Assembly (NCBI GenBank): GCA_046290465.1
Contig: JBKAGP010000001.1
Span: forward strand, 96,001 to 160,000
Reading direction: 5' to 3'
DNA from: Planctomycetota bacterium
GTDB lineage: Bacteria; Planctomycetota; UBA1135; UBA2386
Length of the DNA: 64,000 nt
Part shown: positions 51,692 through 63,129 of the stretch, piece after piece
Layout of the letters: every line of letters starts with the position of its first letter
Position numbering within the stretch: the stretch's first letter is position 1
Program-made: the position numbers and the translations under genes
Notes under the pieces: generated by a model
What the model was told of the DNA's origin: nothing
The model's input: the letters and a program-made list of their open reading frames with translations, nothing else
The model's database searches: none

Positions 51692-51903
51692 CGACGCGAA
51701 CAGTCTGGGCAGGCGGTTGTATCCGCGCCGTTTCCTTCCGGGCGGCGCTTTCCTGCCAGGCCGCGCTCGGGCCGGGCCTTCCGCCGCGATCTGCGCGAAT
51801 CTGGCGGAGGTTTCCATTTGGTAACAAAGGAGACGGCAGGATCTGGGCGTCGGCGATCCGATACCTTGGTCGTCCGTTTCTGAAACTCCTCCGAGGAACC
51901 TAC

Positions 51904-53034
51904 ATGCGAACGAACGTCCCCTTGCTCGCGGCTCTCGCGCTGGCCGGCTCTGCCGCCGCCCAGGCGCTGCCGAAGAGCGGCGAGGTCGCGCTGCAGACCA
52001 AGATCCAGCGCCGCCAGAAGCTGCTGCTCCCCGGTGAGGCCGCCACCGCGGTCGCCACCGGCTTCCACTTCCAGGACGGCATCGGCGCCGACTTCCGCGC
52101 CGACATCGACGGCGAAGCGCTGCGCATCGACGCCGACGGCGACGGCGAACTCGAGACCCGCATCGAGGGCGACAAGGGCTTCGTCGTGCTGGCGAAGGAC
52201 GGCCGCCGCTACGGCGTCTCGCTGCACAAGCAGGGCGAGTGGACGTTCGTCGCCGGCTCGGTGGTGCAGGGCGAACTCGCCGGCACGCGGATCCGGATCG
52301 TCGACCAGAACCACAACGGCCGCTTCGACGACATCGGCAAGGACGCGCTGGTGATCGGCAACGGCCGCGCCGCCTCGTTCCTGTCGGAGGTGGTCTCGAT
52401 CGGCGGCGAGCTGAAGCAGATCGAGGTCGCCGCCGACGGCAGCAAGCTGCGGTTCGCGCCGTTCGCGGGCGCCACCGGCAAGCTGTCGCTGCGCGCGGTC
52501 ACCGACGGCAAGGTGATGGCCGCCGTGCTCAACAGCACCGACGGCCGCTACTCGGTGCACCTCAGCAAGCACGACGCCGAGATGGTCGTGCCGGCCGGCG
52601 ACTACGTGCTGCACTCGGGCGTGCTGTCGCTCGCCGGCAGCCGGGTCGCGATGAGCCAGGGCCGCAGCAAGCCGTTCGCGGTCGCCGCCGACGCCGCCGA
52701 GAAGCTCCAGTGGGGCGGCCCGGCCAAGGCCGAGTTCGCCTACCAGGACCAGGGCGGCCAGCTGACCTTCGACCCGAACCGGATCTGGTTCTACGGTGCG
52801 AAGAACGAGGAGTACAAGAACTGGAACCCGGTCGGGAAGTCGCCGCGCATCACGGTCGTCGATCGTTCGACCGGAGAGGTGATCGCCGAGACCAGATTCC
52901 CAGGCAGTTGTTGAGGCCGAGGCCTCGTACCGGTCGCCGTGAGCGTGCCGAACAACACCAAGGAACTGCACATCGAGATGGTCTTCGACAACTGGGCGTT
53001 CGGCGAGATCGTCGGCACCCCGCGCGGGCTGTAG
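51904..53034 (+). CDS. Secreted hypothetical protein, candidate selenoprotein (read-through of TGA at 52912-52914; otherwise ends at 52914)
   Basis: Signal peptide; D-rich Ca-binding-like loops (DADGDGE, DQNHNGRFDD); ...FPGSC-TGA-GRGLVPVAVSVPNNTKELHIEMVFDNWAFGEIVGTPRGL-TAG in frame. Confidence 0.7.
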
Positions 53035-53042
53035 TCGGCCCC

Positions 53043-53100
53043 GCTCGAAGCACAGCCCGCTCGAACGACAGCTGGCTCGAACGCAGCCGGCTCGAAGCAC
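53043..53100. repeat. Four degenerate 15-16-bp direct repeats (core GCTCGAA)
   Basis: gctcgaa at 53043, 53059, 53075 and 53090. Confidence 0.7.
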
Positions 53101-53171: not shown

Positions 53172-55502
53172 ATGGTCCGTACCCATCGAATCGTCGCGCT
53201 CGTGCTGCTGGCATGCAGCATCGCCCTCGGCCCCCTGGCGGCACAACAGGGGGAAGCGCGCGTGCCCGTGCGCGTGCTCGGCGGCCGCCTGGTCGCCCGC
53301 TGCCAGCTGTCGTCGCCGACCAACAGCGCGCCGGTCAACCTGTGGATCTCGTTCGACAAGCCGGTCGGCCTCGAACTGCACAACAAGGTCGCCAACGGCC
53401 TCGCGGTCGAGCAGCCCGACGGCACCACGCTGCCGATGACGATCGAACTGCCGGGCCTCGACATCGAAGTGCCGATGCGCGAGCACGGCGACGAGCAGGC
53501 GATGGAGGACTTCACCAAGCGGTGGGCGCCGCAGATGGAGGAGGTCGCCTGTGCCGGCACGATCGGCGCGAAAATCCTCAAGGACTACGAGGTCACCTTC
53601 GACCTGCCGCGCGGCCAGCTGCGGCTCAAGCGGGCGGTCGACCGCGGCGGCGAACGGCCGACCGGTCCCGAGCAGCACTACGTGCCGGCGTCGGTCGCCG
53701 GCGACGTCGTCTGGATGCCCGCTCGTCTGCAGAACGGCACCACGCGCATGATCGGCCTCGGCTCGACCAGCCTCGACAGCATCGTCGACGAGGACTTCTG
53801 CTTCGAGGTCGACCAGCCCGGCGGCCGCATCGGTCGCGTCGAGGTAGCCGGCATCGATCTGTCCGAGGTCGTTGCATGGCGGCCTGAACTGTTCGACCTG
53901 GTGCACCGCGACGGCGCGCTGGCGACGCTCGGCCTCGGCTTCCTGCAGCAGTTCCGCGTCAGCGTCGACGTGCAGAACGGCTGGATCGGCCTGACCCGCG
54001 TGCGCGAGCAGCCGTTCCCCGAGGAGGAGGCCGCGTTCTTCGACGCCCGCGCCGAGGAGGACGCCGAGGCGCTGGTCGCGTGGATCCGCGAGCACGGCGG
54101 CTCCCGGCTGGCCGGTGAGTGTGCCAACCTGCTGCTGCAGATGCAGATCGACGAGGGCGCGCCGAAGGAGGACATCGAGCCGGCGCTGCAGTGGGCGCAC
54201 GCGGCGCGGCCGGCGGACCTGCGCGCGACCGAGGCGCTCGACGCCGTCGACGCGCTGGTGCAGGCGCGCCGCCCCGACCTCGCGGTGATGGCCGGGCGCA
54301 TGGGCATCGAGGACGGTCGCGCCGACCGCTACCCCGAGGCCGTGCACCGGCTGCACGTGCGCCTCGGCGAGCTGCTGCTCGAGATGGAGGATACGCGCGG
54401 CGCGTGGGAGCATCTGATGTCGGCGGCGTTCGGGCTGACCGACGCGTTCGGCTCGGCCGACCGCGCCAAGGTCAACCTGCTGCTCGGTCGCGTCTACGAG
54501 CTCAAGGGCAAGCACAAGCGCGCGATGTCGCGCTACGTGCAGGCGGTGATCTCGCCGGAGTTCGGTCCGCAGGCGGTGCCGCGGATCGAGGCGCTGCAGC
54601 AGAAGATGGGCGGCGAGCCGTTCTCGGTGGCGCTGGTTGACCGGATGATCTCGGGCAAGGTGCGCAGCATGACGGCGCCGACCCGCTTCGAGGTCGACGA
54701 CAAGACCGACACCAACCGCTGCGTGCTGATCGAGCACGTCACCAACCCGCACCTCGGCCAGAAGCAGGGCGAGCGCTGGCGCGCGTTCACCGAAGGTGGC
54801 GCGATGGTGTTCGAGGCGCTGCAGAGCCACTTCCCCGGCGATCGCGTGGCGCTGCTGTCCTACCACACCGACGCGCCGCGGCCGGTCGCGATCATGAACG
54901 AGCTGTCGCTGACGGTCGCCGAGTCGGTCGGCAAGCGGCCGGTGTTCCTGGTCGACGGCGTGCAGGCCGGGCCCGGCGCGTGTCGCTATCCGGACGCCGA
55001 CACGGTCTACCAGGACGTGCGCGACTCGGCGGTCGCGCGGTTGAAGCGCAAGAGCGACTTCACGATCGAACTCGACGCGCGCATCGAGGACGGCGTGGTG
55101 CGCGGCGAGGCCCGCATCGCCGGCCCGGCGCGCGGGCGCCGCATCGAGCTGGTGCTGGCCGAGAAGGGCGCCATCTACCCGGGCCTCGGTGCGACCGTCG
55201 TGCACCGCATGGTCGCGCGGGCGGCGCTGACCGGCTCGGTGTTCGGTGCCGCCTGGCGCCCCGAGGACGGCAAGATGGTGCTGCCGTTCGAACGCAGCCT
55301 CGACCAGATCGTCGCCGACAACGTCGCGTTCCTCGACGACTACGAGCAGAGCGGTGGCTCACCGGCCTCGCGCCTTTCGACCGGCATGGCCAAGGACCAG
55401 CTGGTGGTCGTCGCGATCGTGCGCGACCCCGGCGGCCGGCGCGTCGACCAGTGCGCGCAGTGCGACGTGCGCGTCGGGACGCCGCAGGAGGACCAACGAT
55501 GA
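53172..55502 (+). CDS. Secreted multidomain protein: two retropepsin-like domains, TPR region and a thioredoxin/Omp28-like C-terminal domain
   Basis: Signal peptide; GTIGAKILKDYEVTFD..RGQLRL and TLGLGFLQQFRVSVD..NGWI; helical TPR-like middle; VLIEHVT...LSYH...P.FLVDG...LVLAE...H.MVAR. Confidence 0.65.
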   Translation: MVRTHRIVALVLLACSIALGPLAAQQGEARVPVRVLGGRLVARCQLSSPTNSAPVNLWISFDKPVGLELHNKVANGLAVEQPDGTTLPMTIELPGLDIEVPMREHGDEQAMEDFTKRWAPQMEEVACAGTIGAKILKDYEVTFDLPRGQLRLKRAVDRGGERPTGPEQHYVPASVAGDVVWMPARLQNGTTRMIGLGSTSLDSIVDEDFCFEVDQPGGRIGRVEVAGIDLSEVVAWRPELFDLVHRDGALATLGLGFLQQFRVSVDVQNGWIGLTRVREQPFPEEEAAFFDARAEEDAEALVAWIREHGGSRLAGECANLLLQMQIDEGAPKEDIEPALQWAHAARPADLRATEALDAVDALVQARRPDLAVMAGRMGIEDGRADRYPEAVHRLHVRLGELLLEMEDTRGAWEHLMSAAFGLTDAFGSADRAKVNLLLGRVYELKGKHKRAMSRYVQAVISPEFGPQAVPRIEALQQKMGGEPFSVALVDRMISGKVRSMTAPTRFEVDDKTDTNRCVLIEHVTNPHLGQKQGERWRAFTEGGAMVFEALQSHFPGDRVALLSYHTDAPRPVAIMNELSLTVAESVGKRPVFLVDGVQAGPGACRYPDADTVYQDVRDSAVARLKRKSDFTIELDARIEDGVVRGEARIAGPARGRRIELVLAEKGAIYPGLGATVVHRMVARAALTGSVFGAAWRPEDGKMVLPFERSLDQIVADNVAFLDDYEQSGGSPASRLSTGMAKDQLVVVAIVRDPGGRRVDQCAQCDVRVGTPQEDQR

Positions 55503-56991
55503 GCGAGACGCGCCGCTCCAAGGAGCAGATCCGCGCCGGCCTCGAGCAGCTGGCCCGCCCGGTCGCCGAGCACATCCAGGAACACCACGTGCGCCAGCAG
55601 GCCGGCACCGTGCGCGGGCTGGCCGCACCGCTGCTGGTGTTCCCCGCCGTCTACCTGGTGCTGACGCTGCTGTTCGCGCTGGTCGGTGTCGACCTGCGCT
55701 GGCCGTGGTTCGTGCTGCTGCCGCTGACGCTGCTGCTGCCGACGATGCGCGTGCTGCTGCGCCGCAAGGCAGCGCGCGAGCTGCGCGTGCGCGAGCAGCA
55801 GGCCCTGTGCCTGCTCGACCGCGAGCTGGACCTCGACGACCGTTTGTCGACGGCGCACGCGTTCAGCGCCGAGCAGGAGCCCGACGGCTTCATGCTGGCG
55901 GCGATGCACGACGCCGACCGGCGCCTGCGCGAGGCCCAGGGCCGCAAGCCGCGGCCGACGGCGGCCGAACCGGAGAACGCCGCGCCGATGTGGCTCGCCG
56001 GCGTCGCCGCGCTGGTGCTGCTCTGCGTCGCGACGCAGGTGACGCCGGCGCGTTCGGATGGGGCCGATGCGCCGCTCACCGGCCAGCGCGCCGAGGTGGC
56101 CGGCCACGACCGTCGCGACGACGTGCGCGAGCCGGTGGCACCGCCCGCGGGCGAACGGCCGAACCCCGAGCAACGCACGCCGAGGCGGGCCGAACGCGAC
56201 GCCGTCGACTCGTCGGCCGGCGAGGACGACAACCCGACCGAGGCGCAGCGCAAGGGGCGCAACCCGATGGGCTCGGGCCGCAGCGCCGAAGCGCGCACGG
56301 CCGCCGGCGGCGGCAGCGAGCGCGGCCAGCCGAGCAACCAGGCGCAGTCGACCAAGGGCGGCAAGGCCAAGAAGCCCAAGGAGAAGAAGAAGGACCAGCC
56401 GCGCGCGGACGAGCGCGAGCGCCAGGACGAGCCGAACAAGCCGCCGGAGGAGTCGGGCTCGACCCAGGGCCGCGGCTCCGGCAAGGGCTCGTCGAAGTCG
56501 CCGACCGCGTCGCCGTGGTCGGCCAAGGACCAGGTCGTCACCGACGAAGAGGAAGACCCCGAAGAGGACGAAGAGGTCGACGACGAGAACGACGAGTCGA
56601 AGGCGCGCGGCGGCGTGCAGCCGAACCTTCGCCAGCGCAAGCCGCCGGTGAACCGCGACCTGCAGATCTCGATGGGCAACGGCCAGCCGCAGGACGACGC
56701 CAACGGCCGCGGCGGCCCCGGTGGCCCGAAGAAGCAGCGCGGCGTCGCGCAGCTCGTGCTCGGCGTGACGTTCCCCGACCACGTCAGCGCCAAGCCCAAC
56801 CCTGGCATCTCCAAGATCACCCAGGAACGGATCGAACCCCAGGCCCAGCAGGGCGACCGCATCCCCGGCGAAGGCCGCGGCGCGCGCGCCGCCCCGATGG
56901 GCCACCTGACCAAGAGGACCCTGAGCCCCTGGATGCAGGAGCTCGTGCGCAGTTTCTACCTCAGCCTTCGCGAGGAAGGCGGACCGCAGTG

Positions 56992-56992
<1 letters not shown>
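55499..56992 (+). CDS. Membrane protein with a long charged low-complexity C-terminus (MoxR-operon associated)
   Basis: Three TMs, LDRELDLDDRLSTA, G/S/E/K-rich tail, ends ELVRSFY; ATGA-coupled. Confidence 0.8.
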
Positions 56993-58002
<1,010 letters not shown>

Positions 58003-58044: not shown

Positions 58045-58944
58045 ATGCCCGCGACCGCACCGACCCGACAGGAACTCTTCGATCCGGAGTTCCTCGAGGC
58101 CGTCACCCGCTTCCGGATCCTGGCGCAGCGCGTCGCGCGCGGCGGCGTGCACGCCGAGCAGCGTTCGCGCCACGTCGGCTCCGGCATGGAGTTCCGCGAC
58201 TACCGCGGCTATGCGCCGGGCGACGACCTGCGCGCGATCGACTGGAACATCTACCGAAGGCTCGGCCGGGTGTTCCTGCGCCTGTTCGAGGAGTTCGAGG
58301 ACCTGCCGGTCTACCTGGCGCCCGACGTCAGCGGCAGCATGTGGCACGGTGACAAGCCGCGCGCGCATGCCGGCCTGCGCTCGGCGTTCGCGCTGGCGCT
58401 CGCGGCGTTGAACCACCACGACAGCGTCGGGTTGTTCCCGTTCGCCGAGCAGCTGCGCATCGCGCTGCCGGCCAGGAGCGGCAACGTGCGCAAGATGCGG
58501 ATCGCCGAGGCGCTGGCGGCGCAGACGCCGGGCGGGCAGACCGACTTCGTCGCGTCGCTCGGCAAGTTCGCGCGCATGGGGCAGCGCCGGGGCCTGCTGG
58601 TGGTGATCTCGGACTTCTTCGACCCGAACGGCATCGCCGCCGTGCAGGACAGCCTCGCCCGCCAGCGCCACCGGCTGGTGCTGGTGCAGCTGGTGCGCAA
58701 GTCGGACCGGGACCCGTCGCTGAGCGGCGACCTGCTGGTCAAGGACTGCGAGAGCGGCCAGCAGCACGACGTGTCGGTCACGGCCGACGTGCTCGCCGCC
58801 TACCGGCGCGCCTACCAGCAGCACCAGGAAGGCCTCGAGAAGCTGGCGGTGCAGCGGCAGGCGGGCCTGGTGCAGGTCGACGTCGACGAACCGGTCCTGC
58901 CGCAGCTGTCGCAACTGTTCGAGACGGGGGCACTGATCGTATGA
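58045..58944 (+). CDS. DUF58 protein
   Basis: GSGMEFRDYRGYAPGDDLRAIDWN, DVSGSM, VVISDFF. Confidence 0.93.
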   Translation: MPATAPTRQELFDPEFLEAVTRFRILAQRVARGGVHAEQRSRHVGSGMEFRDYRGYAPGDDLRAIDWNIYRRLGRVFLRLFEEFEDLPVYLAPDVSGSMWHGDKPRAHAGLRSAFALALAALNHHDSVGLFPFAEQLRIALPARSGNVRKMRIAEALAAQTPGGQTDFVASLGKFARMGQRRGLLVVISDFFDPNGIAAVQDSLARQRHRLVLVQLVRKSDRDPSLSGDLLVKDCESGQQHDVSVTADVLAAYRRAYQQHQEGLEKLAVQRQAGLVQVDVDEPVLPQLSQLFETGALIV

Positions 58945-60644
58945 GCTTCGGCTTCGTTCCGGCGCTGCTCGGCGTCTTCGGTCTGCTCGCGATCGCGGCG
59001 GCGCTGTTCGCGCTGCAGCGGCTGCGCGTCCGCCACCAGCAGGTGGAGGTCGAGACCACGCTGTTCTGGAAGCAGGCGATCGAGGAGTCGCGCGCCCGCG
59101 TGTTGACGCAGCGCTTCCGCCACCCGTGGACCTACGCGCTGCTGCTGCTGATCTGTGCGCTGCTGTGGCTGTCGTTCGCCGGCATTCGCGGCGACGGTGG
59201 CGACGGCCGCCGCCACCTGGTGCTGCTCGACGGCTCGGCCGGCATGGCCCACGGCGAACGGTTCGCGCGCGCGATCGAACGCGCCCAGGACTACGTTGCC
59301 GGCCTGCCGCAGGAACGCCGCACGGTGGTGCTGTGCGCGGGCCGCACCGAGACCCTGCTGCGGCCCGGCGAGCCGGCCCTGCTGCTGTCGCGCCGGCTCG
59401 ACGGAGTGGCACCGGCCGCGGCGCCCAACCGGATCGCCGAGGTGCTGTTCGACCTGGTCCGCGCCGCCGACGGCGTGCCGACGACCGTCTGCGTGGTCGG
59501 CGACGCGCCGCTGCGCGCAGCCGAACGCGCGCTGCTGCCCGACTCGGTGCGGCTGCGTCGCCTGCCGGTGCCGCCCCGTAGTGGCGCCAACGCCGGCATC
59601 ACCGCGCTCGGCGTGCGGCCCGCGGCGTCCGGTCGCTGGGACGCGGTCGACGTGCTGGTCGAGGTCCTGGCCCTATCGGGCGCGACCGACGGCGCCGCGC
59701 CGCGGCTGCGTCTCGACGACGTCGACTGGACCGGCACCCCGTCGGCCGAGCCCGTCGACGGCGGCCGGCGCTTCCGCTACCGCGACGTGCCGGCGAACGG
59801 CCAGCAGCTGACCGCGTCGCTCGCGGGCGGCGACGCGCTGGCGCTCGACGACGTCGCGACGTTCGTACTGCCGGACCGCGCCCCGATCCCGGTCGCGATC
59901 GGGCCCGGCGTGCCGGCGATCGTGCTGCGCGCGGTCGCCTCCGATCCCGGCCTGGTGCGTCGCGATGGCGATGCGCGGGTCGTGGTGCGCGTCGCCGGCA
60001 CGACCTTCGGCAGCGGCCTGCCGGCGTTCGAACTGGCCGACCCCGAGCAGTCCGACGACGCCTTCCTGGTGTTCCATCCGCCAGGCCAGGATCCGTCGGC
60101 CGTGCTCGACGAACTCTACACCGGGCTCGGCCTGCACGAGATCGACGCGATGGCGGCTGCCGCCGCGCTCGGCCGCGCGGTCACGATGGGTGCGAAGCCA
60201 GCCGAACGGAAGGGGCTGTGGGTCTGGCGGCAGCTGCTCGACCCCGACTACGACTTCGTGCGCTCGCGTTCGTTCCCGCTGTTCGTCGGGCTCGGCCTGC
60301 GCTGGCTCGCCGACTTCGAAGAAGGCCCGGCGCGGGTCGCCGTCGGCGAACCGGTCGCCGCGCACGACGGTGACGTCACCGTAGACGAAGTGCGCGGCCG
60401 CAGCTTCGGTGCCGCGTTCGTGCCGCGGCAGCCCGGCCCACACCAGCCCGCGCGCGGTGCGGCCTTCGCGGCCTCGCTGCTCGACCCGCATGCCAGCGGG
60501 CTCGCGCCGGCCGACCTGGCCGACATCGACGAACTCGACGCGGCGTCGTCGTCGGGCTTCGACCTGATCACCGTCCTGCTGCTCTTCGCGCTGCTGCTGC
60601 TCGCGGCTGAGTGGGTGCTGTTCCGCACGTCCCGCATCCCGTAG
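58941..60644 (+). CDS. BatA-like N-terminal double-TM, vWA-like membrane protein
   Basis: ALQRLR.R...V...TLFW; VLLDGSAGM; C-terminal TM ending LLAAEW. Confidence 0.85.
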   Translation: MSFGFVPALLGVFGLLAIAAALFALQRLRVRHQQVEVETTLFWKQAIEESRARVLTQRFRHPWTYALLLLICALLWLSFAGIRGDGGDGRRHLVLLDGSAGMAHGERFARAIERAQDYVAGLPQERRTVVLCAGRTETLLRPGEPALLLSRRLDGVAPAAAPNRIAEVLFDLVRAADGVPTTVCVVGDAPLRAAERALLPDSVRLRRLPVPPRSGANAGITALGVRPAASGRWDAVDVLVEVLALSGATDGAAPRLRLDDVDWTGTPSAEPVDGGRRFRYRDVPANGQQLTASLAGGDALALDDVATFVLPDRAPIPVAIGPGVPAIVLRAVASDPGLVRRDGDARVVVRVAGTTFGSGLPAFELADPEQSDDAFLVFHPPGQDPSAVLDELYTGLGLHEIDAMAAAAALGRAVTMGAKPAERKGLWVWRQLLDPDYDFVRSRSFPLFVGLGLRWLADFEEGPARVAVGEPVAAHDGDVTVDEVRGRSFGAAFVPRQPGPHQPARGAAFAASLLDPHASGLAPADLADIDELDAASSSGFDLITVLLLFALLLLAAEWVLFRTSRIP

Positions 60645-60657
60645 CCGAGGCCCCCCG

Positions 60658-63129
60658 ATGAACTTCCAGTATCCCGGTTTCCTCTGGCTGCTGCCGCTCG
60701 TGCTGCTGGTGTGGTTCGTGCCGCGGCGACCCGCCGACGCGCGCCGCGCCCTGCTGCGCACGGTCGTGCTGGTCGCGCTGCTGCTGGGCCTCGCGCGGCC
60801 CGTGCTGGTGCGCTCGTCGTGGAGCGACCACCACGTCGTGGTCGTCGATCGCACCGGCAGCGTCGCCGATCCGGCGGCGGTCGACCGTGCGCTCGCGGCC
60901 GTGGTCCAGAAGCTGCAGCCCGACGCGGTGCGGGTGCTCGTCGAGATCGGCGAACGTGCCGGTGCCACCGACGCGCCGGCCGGCTTCGACCAGCTGCTGC
61001 AGGTGCGTTCGAGAGGCCGCTCGCCGCTCGGCGATGCGCTGCACGCGGCGCTGCGGGCGATCCCCGCCGGCACCGGCGGCGCCATCACGCTGATCAGCGA
61101 CGGCCGCGGCACCGACTCTGGCTGGCAGCGCGCGGTCCAGGAACTGACCGAACGCGATCTGCCGCTGCACGTCGTCGCCGTGCCGGCCGCCGACACCAAC
61201 GCGCGGCCGGTCGGCATCGTCCCGCTCGACGAACTGCGCGTCGGCCACGTCGGCCGCGTGCGCGTCGCGGTCGCCGCCGCCGACGCCGAACTGCAGGTCA
61301 CCCTGAAGGCCGATGGCGAGGTCGTCGGCCAGCCGGTCGCGCTCACGTGTCGCGGCGTCGCCACCGTCGACCTGCCGTTCGAGCCGCGCGCGAGCGGCTT
61401 CGTCGACCTGACCGTCGAGGTCGCGCGCACCGACGCCGCCGAGCAAGACCCGTCCGACGACACGCGGACCCGCACCGTCGCCGTGCAGGAGCCGCTGCGC
61501 GTGCTCTACCTCGGCGGCCGCGTGCAGCAGGCCGGAGAACACCTCGGCCAGCTGCTCGGTGACGGCTTCGAGCTGCGGCAGCCGGCCGGGGATGCGATCG
61601 ACCTCGCCGACGTCGACCTGACCGTGCTCGACGACCGCGCTGCGGCCGAGGTGCCGACCGCCTGGCAGCAGGCGATCGCCGACGCCGTGCAGCAGCGCGG
61701 CATGGGCCTGTTGGTCAGCGGCGGCCGTTCGGCGTTCGGTCCCGGCGGCTACCACGACACCGTGATCGAGACCATCTCGCCGGTCGAGTACGTGCAGAAG
61801 GAGGAGAAGAAGGACCCGAGCACCACGCTCGCGGTCGTCATCGACACCTCCGGCTCGATGGTCGGCAACCGGATGACGCTGGCCAAGGAGGTCGCGCGGC
61901 TGGCGATCCGCCGCCTGCTGCCGCACGACAAGGTCGGCATCGTCGAGTTCTACGGCACCAAGCAGTGGGCCGCGCCGATCCAGTCGGCCGCCAACTCGAT
62001 CGACCTGCAGCGCGCCATCAACCGCCTCGGTGCTTCGGGCGGCACGGTGCTGTTCCCGGCGATCGAGGAGTGCTACTACGCGCTCAAGAACGTGCAGACG
62101 CGCTACAAGCACGTGCTCGTGATCACCGACGCCGGCGTCGAGACCGGGCCCTACGAGAACCTGCTGCGCAAGATGGCCGACGAGGGCATCGCGACGTCGA
62201 CGGTGCTGGTTGGCCCGGGCCGTCACAGCGAGTTCCTGGTCGAGCTCGCCGACTGGGGCGGGGGCCGCTACTACCACTCGCCCGACCGCTTCAACCTGCC
62301 CGAGCTGCTGCTGAAGAAGCCGAGCACGTCGATGCTGCCGCCGTACCGTCCCGGCAACTACGCGGTCGAGACCCGCGGCGGCCGCGGCTGGTGGGGGGAC
62401 GTCGACCCGAAGCAGATCCCGCCGGTGGAGACGCTGGTCGAGACCTCGGCGCGGCCCGGTGCCGACGTGTTGATGTCGGTGCAGGGCAGCGGTCGGCCGG
62501 TGCTCGCGTCGTGGCGCTACGGCCTCGGCCGCGTCACCGCGATGACCACCGAGCCGGTCGGCCCGGGCACGCGCGGCTGGCGCGACTGGGACGGCTACGG
62601 GCCGATGCTGGCCCGCCTGCTGGCCCGCACGTCGCGCTCGTCGCAGCCGCCGTTCTCGTTCCTGCTGCGTCGCGACGCCGAACACCTGTACGTCGAGGCA
62701 CGCCGCGCCACTCGCGGCGCGAGCGCGCCACGGGTCGCTGTCGCCGATGGCGCCGAGGTCGATCTGCGCGAGGTCGCGCCGGGCGTGTTCGCCGGCGTGC
62801 ACGTCGCGGCGGCGAGCGACGACGTGCGCCTGCTCGCGACCGATGGTTCGGGCTGGCGCCACCACCTCTGCTCCGATGCGCTCGATGGAGGCGTCCCGGA
62901 GACCCAGGTCGACCCGCGTGAGGCCCTGCCGCTGCCGGCGATCGCCACGCACACCGGCGGTGCGTTCGTGGCGGTCGGCGCAGCCGCGCCGGCCCTGTCG
63001 CTGCGCCGCTCCGGCACGCCGCTGCAGGTGGTGCCGTTGTGGCCGTGGCTGGTCCTGCTGTCCCTGCTCGCATTCCTGTTCGACGTGTTCGACCGCCGTC
63101 GCGGCGCCGGCACGCGGAGGCCCGTCTGA
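60658..63129 (+). CDS. Membrane-anchored double-vWA / glutamine-amidotransferase-like protein
   Basis: MNFQYP.FLWLL; VVDRTGS, LISDG; GG..AFGPGGY; VIDTSGSM, ITDAG; WRYGLGRV; C-terminal TM. Confidence 0.88.
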   Translation: MNFQYPGFLWLLPLVLLVWFVPRRPADARRALLRTVVLVALLLGLARPVLVRSSWSDHHVVVVDRTGSVADPAAVDRALAAVVQKLQPDAVRVLVEIGERAGATDAPAGFDQLLQVRSRGRSPLGDALHAALRAIPAGTGGAITLISDGRGTDSGWQRAVQELTERDLPLHVVAVPAADTNARPVGIVPLDELRVGHVGRVRVAVAAADAELQVTLKADGEVVGQPVALTCRGVATVDLPFEPRASGFVDLTVEVARTDAAEQDPSDDTRTRTVAVQEPLRVLYLGGRVQQAGEHLGQLLGDGFELRQPAGDAIDLADVDLTVLDDRAAAEVPTAWQQAIADAVQQRGMGLLVSGGRSAFGPGGYHDTVIETISPVEYVQKEEKKDPSTTLAVVIDTSGSMVGNRMTLAKEVARLAIRRLLPHDKVGIVEFYGTKQWAAPIQSAANSIDLQRAINRLGASGGTVLFPAIEECYYALKNVQTRYKHVLVITDAGVETGPYENLLRKMADEGIATSTVLVGPGRHSEFLVELADWGGGRYYHSPDRFNLPELLLKKPSTSMLPPYRPGNYAVETRGGRGWWGDVDPKQIPPVETLVETSARPGADVLMSVQGSGRPVLASWRYGLGRVTAMTTEPVGPGTRGWRDWDGYGPMLARLLARTSRSSQPPFSFLLRRDAEHLYVEARRATRGASAPRVAVADGAEVDLREVAPGVFAGVHVAAASDDVRLLATDGSGWRHHLCSDALDGGVPETQVDPREALPLPAIATHTGGAFVAVGAAAPALSLRRSGTPLQVVPLWPWLVLLSLLAFLFDVFDRRRGAGTRRPV

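Follow-up and report, generated by a model that had tools for sequence, protein, structure and literature searches.

In the 64,000-nucleotide stretch of planctomycete DNA analysed here (the window), the TGA codon at positions 52912–52914 very likely encodes selenocysteine (Sec), as judged from comparative sequence evidence. The gene that contains it would give a likely exported selenoprotein of 376 residues, and we assign a probability of roughly 0.5 to the reading that its Cys-Sec pair is a redox centre of the cell envelope, acting in concert with the protein encoded by the gene that follows, F1. A first-pass annotation of the window had proposed a selenoprotein at this site. That reading is borne out by the Sec machinery of the genome, the conservation of the sequences flanking the TGA, homologues with Cys at the Sec position, a downstream hairpin that conforms to the SECIS model, and a predicted fold that is completed by the extension beyond the TGA. 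The features of the gene are:

51904..53034, + strand: predicted selenoprotein gene, 376 aa, a signal peptide followed by all-beta domains (pLDDT 86, pTM 0.80)
51904..51960, + strand: likely cleavable signal peptide (Met-Arg, hydrophobic run, Ala-rich end), recognised by eye and not by a predictor
52129..52344, + strand: acidic DxDGDG and DQNxNGxxxD loops, in which D76, G81, D134, G139, and D147 are invariant
52717..53025, + strand: C-terminal Ig/FnIII-like beta-sandwich (approximately residues 272–374) bearing the Cys-Sec loop; the extension provides the last three strands
52909..52914, + strand: Cys336 (TGT) and predicted Sec337 (TGA), the sole Cys/Sec residues of the protein
52915..53034, + strand: 39-codon extension to TAG, conserved at the protein level (PVAVSVP; NWAFG)
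52931..52950, + strand: predicted bacterial SECIS, a 7-bp stem with one bulged U and the loop CGUGA at 52938–52942, located 23 nt downstream of the UGA (−8.5 kcal/mol)

The ORF from 51904 to 52914 comprises 336 codons and ends in TGT-TGA-GGC, and the frame stays open, as had been noted in the first pass, for 39 codons up to the TAG at 53032–53034. The codons of the extension are as gene-like as had been described, with a mean codon log-odds of 0.57 compared with 0.62 for the gene body. The length of the open frame is not evidence in itself and was discarded as such, because at least 39 open codons follow the TGA in 1486 of the 2379 gene-like TGA-ending ORFs of the genome that served as controls; 47 of these 1486 score as coding as the extension of the selenoprotein gene. 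Immediately upstream of the TGA, codon usage does depart from that of the genome (mean log-odds −0.59), but the RNA-level constraint that had been suggested to explain this is not seen, as codons 326–342 vary ordinarily at synonymous sites (0.46–0.47 in 30 homologues). Contigs from four out of four other DNA runs cover the TGA with no variant listed, and therefore the codon is not an assembly error. Some contigs from RNA runs span the extension; as contigs only, they are no measure of transcription or its level.

A promoter scan found no sigma-70 site. An element at window positions 51815–51870, composed of TTxGTAAxA, approximately 25 nt, and GxTAC, is kept in all seven aligned loci of the same genus and may serve as a promoter or as an operator with an inverted repeat. 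In the spacer that separates the selenoprotein gene from F1, at 53043–53100, a unit of approximately 16 nt resembling cagcccgctcgaa is repeated three to four times, and one of the repeat units is missing from the contigs of two of the three DNA runs covering the region.

The sequences on both sides of the TGA are conserved, as would be expected of a selenoprotein. Matches were found in 29 of 61 related genomes (the source included), each match covering the site has one TGA, and all 26 distinct loci run on in frame for 37–75 residues. The site and a later Phe-Gly are invariant in an alignment of 23 rows, in which the identity to the query falls to 29%. The named homologues are mostly from Planctomycetota, and a profile search matched 141 of the 401 genomes in a sample of the phylum, many of them via partial or distant paralogues only. 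TGA occupies the site in 62 of 70 aligned rows covering the domain (61 distinct loci, as L122 is a duplicate). The 70 rows were drawn from the highest-scoring matches plus a selection of the others, their counts are not frequencies, and the frameshifted locus of genome G012 lies outside the filter. The 61 TGA loci divide into 53 with Cys-TGA (CU), five with Cys-x-x-TGA (CxxU), two with TGA-TGA (UU), and one with a lone TGA (U). Every stop-bearing locus at the site (61/61) uses TGA and no other stop. A criterion given in 10.1101/2022.07.06.499078 for recognising selenoproteins is an in-frame TGA, with no other stop, that is conserved at one site in at least ten homologues with similarity extending through it; for this family, the number of distinct TGA loci is 61.

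The remaining eight of the 70 rows read through the site, two with Cys-Cys, one with Ser-Cys, two with a single Cys, and three without Cys. Homologues with Cys at the Sec position, which had been named as a potential source of support, are represented by L093, L094, and L095. L093 and L094, both of them Cys forms, are nested in well-supported TGA clades of a quick tree, which suggests a change from Sec to Cys. A search of 1.84 billion representatives returned 208 at an E value of 1e-30 or better. Among the best 150 of these, 111 end at the site, 18 read through, and 21 do neither. Stop codons are invisible in this set, and the 111 proteins ending at the site do so in Cys (67), in Cys-x-x (10), or otherwise (34). 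Because these 34 lack Cys as the last or third from last residue, the neighbouring Cys may be dispensable. The 18 read-through representatives, classified by eye, include nine with Cys-Cys, four or five with x-Cys, and four without Cys. A scan of a species-genome collection for the Cys-TGA pattern yielded at least 120 loci, and 84 of the 120 matches listed are family members; the set was selected by pattern and overlaps the first homologue set. Its members include L256 from Engelhardtia mirabilis Pla133 and Pirellulaceae MAGs. Among cultured strains, the CU form is represented by L256 and the UU form by L201.

Genome G314 contains two near-identical TGA-bearing copies (L104 and L113), and several other genomes hold one member of each of the two subfamilies described below. 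In L046 and L043, the homologue is split by a frameshift near residues 100–133, approximately 280 codons before the TGA, which may be an assembly error; the TGA, the hairpin, and the extension are kept. Loci L097, L100, L108, L109, and L110 encode distant paralogues with frames of 690–780 aa, in which the domain is set C-terminally and the site holds neither Cys nor Sec. Weak TPR matches were found in two of these five paralogues.

The SECIS is located further downstream than either of the two pairings that had been named at the TGA in the first pass; neither pairing is conserved, although one of them, gaggc/gcctc, forms in the predicted fold. The consensus constraints quoted in PMC13188914 are a loop of 3–9 nt, a stem of 4–16 bp, a G in loop positions 1–2, a spacing of 16–37 nt, and an MFE of −7.5 or lower. 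The hairpin at 52931–52950, checked by hand, agrees with the four published constraints quoted there and is the predicted SECIS of the gene. At the same offset, the loop starts with CG(U/G) in 60 of the 62 TGA rows, and in the other two it is shifted by one codon, as judged by eye. The top three pairs of the stem are 97.4% paired over 26 sequences and include ten double changes, which is reached by none of 500 shuffles; the structure used in this covariation analysis was taken from one of the 26 sequences tested. Synonymous differences in 30 members of the window's subfamily drop to 0.075 at codons 343–349, compared with 0.41–0.48 in all other segments. At codons 361–374, amino-acid conservation is 74% and synonymous sites change at an ordinary rate, the pattern expected of coding DNA. 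The loop is altered in two Cys-Cys genes (CGCGC and GGCAC) and intact in the Ser-Cys gene. The folding energy of the hairpin is unremarkable (z −0.04, with 84 of 200 shuffles folding equally well), and the z-score was set aside as uninformative. The TGA conserved in many planctomycetes, together with the conserved hairpin behind it, makes it very likely that the codon specifies Sec.

The TGA-TGA form of the site was sought by a pattern scan of the species-genome collection, which gave 114 loci, four of them family members with the same hairpin behind the codons. One of these is L201 from the complete genome of the cultured Rohdeia mirabilis Pla163. The identifiers carrying the tandem codons are L074, L077, L162, L201, L241, and L242, which correspond to four distinct loci, as some identifiers likely denote the same locus. 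The two UU rows fall in separate places of the quick tree. Because the codon for Cys has given way to the first TGA and the reading frame downstream of the pair stays conserved, the tandem is likely read as Sec-Sec. The UU motif occurs in no row of Table 1 of a 2026 review (PMC13188914), and the TGA-TGA form would provide a test of whether bacterial SelB decodes back-to-back UGAs from one hairpin.

The genome, which is assembled into one contig and is 94% complete, encodes the Sec machinery whose presence the first-pass annotation had made a point to check: selA, selB, selC, and a TGA-containing selD all score above cut-off. SelA is matched with an E value of 1e-109 and the C-terminal domain of SelB with 6.5e-12, tRNA-Sec scores 72.8 bits (cut-off 47), and selD has one internal TGA with a hairpin of similar loop (CGGGC) located 26 nt after its UGA. 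Across the genome, such a hairpin lies behind 328 of 102,602 TGAs, and in 172 of these cases the frame is open on both sides. When ranked by coding score, the selenoprotein gene is fifth, amid UxxC thioredoxin-like and HMA-like candidates. Further candidate selenoprotein genes with the same CG(U/G)G-loop hairpin are located on contig G000:C1 at 2991886(−), 2992126(−), 2971017(−), 3251155(+), 3216888(−), 1516270(+), 3220115(−), and 5453431(−); from their motifs, we take them to be HMA-like UxxC proteins, two copies of which are separated by 240 nt, and UxxC proteins of a thioredoxin-like type. The genome looks selenoprotein-rich. TGA is also its commonest stop, ending 1615 of 2759 long genes, and therefore the codon is not globally reassigned. 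The co-occurrence of the family with selB was dropped as support, since selB is present in 71 of 74 family genomes and in 67 of 80 comparison genomes, which hardly discriminates; three TGA-bearing MAGs are without a selB match.

The protein is very probably exported. Hydrophobic N-termini are found across the 23 alignment rows, and residues 1–20 of the structure predicted by AlphaFold2 from the 23-row alignment, with U modelled as C, are disordered (pLDDT below 50). The remainder of the model is all beta, without helices, at the overall confidence given above. The acidic loops in its N-terminal half likely bind Ca2+, as suggested by their sequence motifs; EF-hand and FG-GAP profiles gave weak matches only, in single family members. 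Cys336 and Sec337 are located in an inter-strand loop of lower confidence (approximately 70). The 39 extra codons add three strands that complete the Ig/FnIII-like domain of the predicted model, a point that the first pass had proposed to check. In Cys-free paralogues, which reach 780 aa in length, these strands likewise form the end of the protein, and no stop interrupts the frame. In VIA-align comparisons, residues 272–374 match FnIII and Ig-like sandwiches as a unit, with Z scores of 6–7 (maximum 7.1) and an rmsd of approximately 3 Å, as exemplified by 4gh7_B (Z 6.9, rmsd 2.8, 81 residues aligned). None of the matches reaches a Z of 8, and the fold is thus a common arrangement and not evidence of function. 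The family was rightly called unrecognised, since the protein of the window has no Pfam or NCBIfam match, and NCBIfam models gave no family for the read-through protein at E values up to 1. A sequence search of the PDB returned one antibody light chain (E 3e-4) and otherwise noise, and Foldseek with the whole model retrieved generic beta-repeat proteins only, with TM-scores of 0.2 or lower.

The selenoprotein gene is the first in a run of genes on the same strand:

53172..55502, + strand: partner gene F1, 776 aa, likely exported, with an N-terminal beta region, a TPR-like middle, and a C-terminal Omp28-like domain without CxxC
54980..56992, + strand: ORF F3, with membrane segments and a charged low-complexity tail, its true start probably near 55499
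56992..58002, + strand: MoxR AAA+ ATPase (AAA_3, E 4e-60)
58045..58944, + strand: DUF58 protein (E 1e-35)
58941..60644, + strand: protein with a BatA-like N-terminus (E 6e-5; 23.8 bits, below the Pfam cut-off of 25.9)
60658..63129, + strand: VWA-domain membrane protein, followed by an ORF of approximately 2100 aa that runs out of the window

The family can be divided into two subfamilies. Genes of the window's type head a conserved order of F1, F3, MoxR, DUF58, BatA-like, VWA, and giant ORF, whereas those of the GGCUGGG type (Gly-Gly-Cys-Sec-Gly-Gly) have variable neighbours and no MoxR/VWA operon. A family gene is located within 1 kb upstream of F1 in 30 of the 39 strongest F1 matches. The divergent two-component system that the first pass had noted beside the gene is not a constant neighbour: its kinase family lies beside the gene in two of 24 loci, one of which is the window, and in one further locus. 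The family gene directly precedes selD-selA(-selB-selC) in L113–L116 and tRNA-Sec-selA-selB in L117, and these five loci are not independent because four come from one family. L114 and L115 have two selD-like genes each, and L117 has a second, distant family match after selB.

Among 16 members of the F1 family, an Omp28 domain was detected in four (best E 1.2e-4) and TPR_7 in six. The N-terminal beta region of F1 resembles, by eye only, a degenerate double retropepsin fold, and this stays a lead because the single-sequence model of the region has a pLDDT of 36. A distant F1 homologue at G176:C3:18114-19589 has an in-frame TGA inside the match, which could be another Sec site.

The family protein probably binds F1, as indicated by complex prediction. 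The pair from L121, formed by a Cys-Cys homologue and its F1, scored 0.61 (0.61, 0.09, and 0.71 in individual runs), compared with 0.00 for the best control; the mark set for this score is reached by 116 of 157 solved pairs and by two of 215 mismatched pairs. Agreement among the runs extends to at least 0% of contacts, and the pLDDT of the partner is at least 78. In the predicted complex, the motif loop docks on the N-terminal region of F1, near the invariant H73, N74, and E107 (L121 numbering), and the residue equivalent to Sec is itself absent from the named contacts. A cleft Cys is located near the predicted interface in 11 of 15 F1 proteins, and the F1 of the window has Val. Conservation at the F1 interface does not exceed that of the remaining F1 sequence (0.56 compared with 0.60).

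In the mechanism that we propose, SelB would bind the hairpin with the CGUGA loop and deliver Sec-tRNA to the UGA; in selenium shortage, translation would stop at the UGA, and the last domain would be left unfolded. The complete protein would be exported, and its last domain would present the Cys-Sec loop to F1. The periplasmic selenolate could then attack disulfides or peroxides, with the neighbouring Cys or a Cys of F1 as the resolving residue. The pair would cycle between the selenolate-thiol and selenenylsulfide states, reducing or rearranging envelope substrates for the Bat-like MoxR/VWA complex. We lean slightly towards such a redox function over the binding of a soft metal. The interchange of CU, CxxU, UU, and CC at one site, where they are the sole Cys/Sec residues of the protein, argues for redox activity, and the fold, which is not thioredoxin-like, argues against it. 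For Bat operons, both the supply of periplasmic reducing power, which is unproven, and a role in envelope integrity are among the proposals in PMC5700661. A wider and more tentative version of the redox reading is that the family extends throughout the phylum, that its exported members use an Ig-like domain to offer a Cys-Sec loop to a conserved partner and serve as the redox catalyst of a planctomycete Bat-like MoxR/VWA envelope machine, and that some members decode two consecutive UGAs from a single SECIS into a Sec-Sec (diselenide) centre.

MoxR/VWA pairs are often metal-insertion chaperones, and the selenoprotein might instead use its Cys-Sec loop as a soft-metal ligand (for Cu, Ag, Hg, or similar) that captures the metal in the periplasm and hands it over to F1 or the MoxR/VWA machine. 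We consider this less likely; it is nevertheless the main rival to the redox function, because several of the catalogued CU families have links to metals. The site would possibly be shared with the conserved His and Glu of F1, whose invariant His, Asn, and Glu lie within or next to the predicted contact surface; the genome also contains several HMA-like UxxC candidates. CU motifs occur in families for which metal handling is proposed, namely SaoL, SaoB, and HgcA (10.1101/2022.07.06.499078) and MbdU (PMC13188914). However, no metal-transport or metal-resistance family recurs among the minority of neighbour clusters that were annotated, and the CxxU, UU, and lone-U variants would present differing ligand geometries.

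It is improbable that the protein serves selenium housekeeping, whether by storing selenium, by carrying it, or as a selenium-dependent switch that truncates the last domain when translation ends at the UGA and so controls the assembly of the envelope complex. The gene directly precedes sel genes in five loci from two families, the UU variants double the selenium content, and the stop falls within a folding unit, as such a role would predict. Selenoprotein genes, however, commonly cluster with sel genes whatever their function, one or two Sec per 376 residues make a poor store, and genomes that have retained selB still contain Cys-Cys forms. It is highly improbable that the TGA acts as an ordinary stop, that it arose as a nonsense mutation common to these loci, or that a variant code assigns it to Cys, Trp, or Gly: public gene calls do end there (14 of 15 fetched proteins terminate in FPG[S/T/N]C) and open frames after TGA are common in the genome, but TGA is the commonest stop without global reassignment, it is the codon at the site in all 61 stop-bearing loci, codons 361–374 preserve their amino acids and vary normally at synonymous sites, and the domain needs the extension, the strands of which are read through in the Cys-free paralogues.

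The reading of the gene as that of an envelope selenoprotein can be compared with known systems. Like bacterial genes with a SECIS inside the ORF, of the E. coli FDH type, the gene has a UGA, a 5-nt loop with G at position 2 followed by U, a 7-bp stem, and SelA/B/C/D. It differs from catalogued bacterial selenoproteins in its all-beta, Ig/FnIII-like host domain and likely export, an unusual setting for Sec. The 119 families in Table 1 of the review (PMC13188914) include no match by name, domain, or motif; this comparison comprised the table entries and Pfam and NCBIfam scans, and the families of Haft and Tolstoy 2025 (mSystems) were covered via Table 1 and NCBIfam only. Planctomycetes are unmentioned in the main texts of deep-Sep (PMC12013277) and BSepDB (PMC13326102), and a literature search that included Planctomycetes together with selenoproteins found no description of the family, the comparison with these two catalogues covering passages of their main texts. 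The family is very likely new and uncatalogued. It adds to the bacterial catalogue a large family that is systematically truncated, as seen in the 111 of the best 150 representatives that stop at the site.

The closest motifs are those of the CU families SaoL, SaoB, SaoC, HgcA, MbdU, KCU-star, and Csac_0668, which share with the new family the CU pair, database proteins truncated at the Cys, and Cys-Cys homologues. The new family differs from them in its fold and gene context and in the CxxU, lone-U, and UU variants at its site, and the NCBIfam models of SaoL, SaoB, SaoC, HgcA, MbdU, and KCU-star do not match the read-through protein at E values up to 1. The occurrence of CU, CxxU, U, CC, and UU at one site provides a natural series on selenium versus sulfur. 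A thioredoxin-fold selenoprotein, with UxxC or CxxU at the start of a helix, was ruled out since the model is all beta without helices and has no Pfam match.

Mammalian thioredoxin reductase has a C-terminal Gly-Cys-Sec-Gly redox centre, and the family resembles it in the vicinal Cys-Sec followed by Gly. Unlike that enzyme, the family has no flavoprotein (FAD/NADPH) domains according to Pfam, and its motif is an internal loop located 39 residues from the end and not a mobile tail. A thioredoxin reductase of the large type was ruled out on the same grounds, the internal position of the motif and the lack of a Pfam match, and at most the Cys-Sec loop may, by analogy, work like the centre of that enzyme.

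The planctomycete operon resembles the Bat (Bacteroides aerotolerance) operons in its run of MoxR, DUF58, BatA-like, VWA, and TPR-like genes. It differs from them in that it is headed by the selenoprotein gene and F1, and no BatD or SH3 protein was found among the scanned proteins. The link between the selenoprotein and this operon makes the old and unproven idea of periplasmic redox activity for Bat-like operons directly testable and, if the redox reading is true, the notion of periplasmic reducing power gains a concrete active site.
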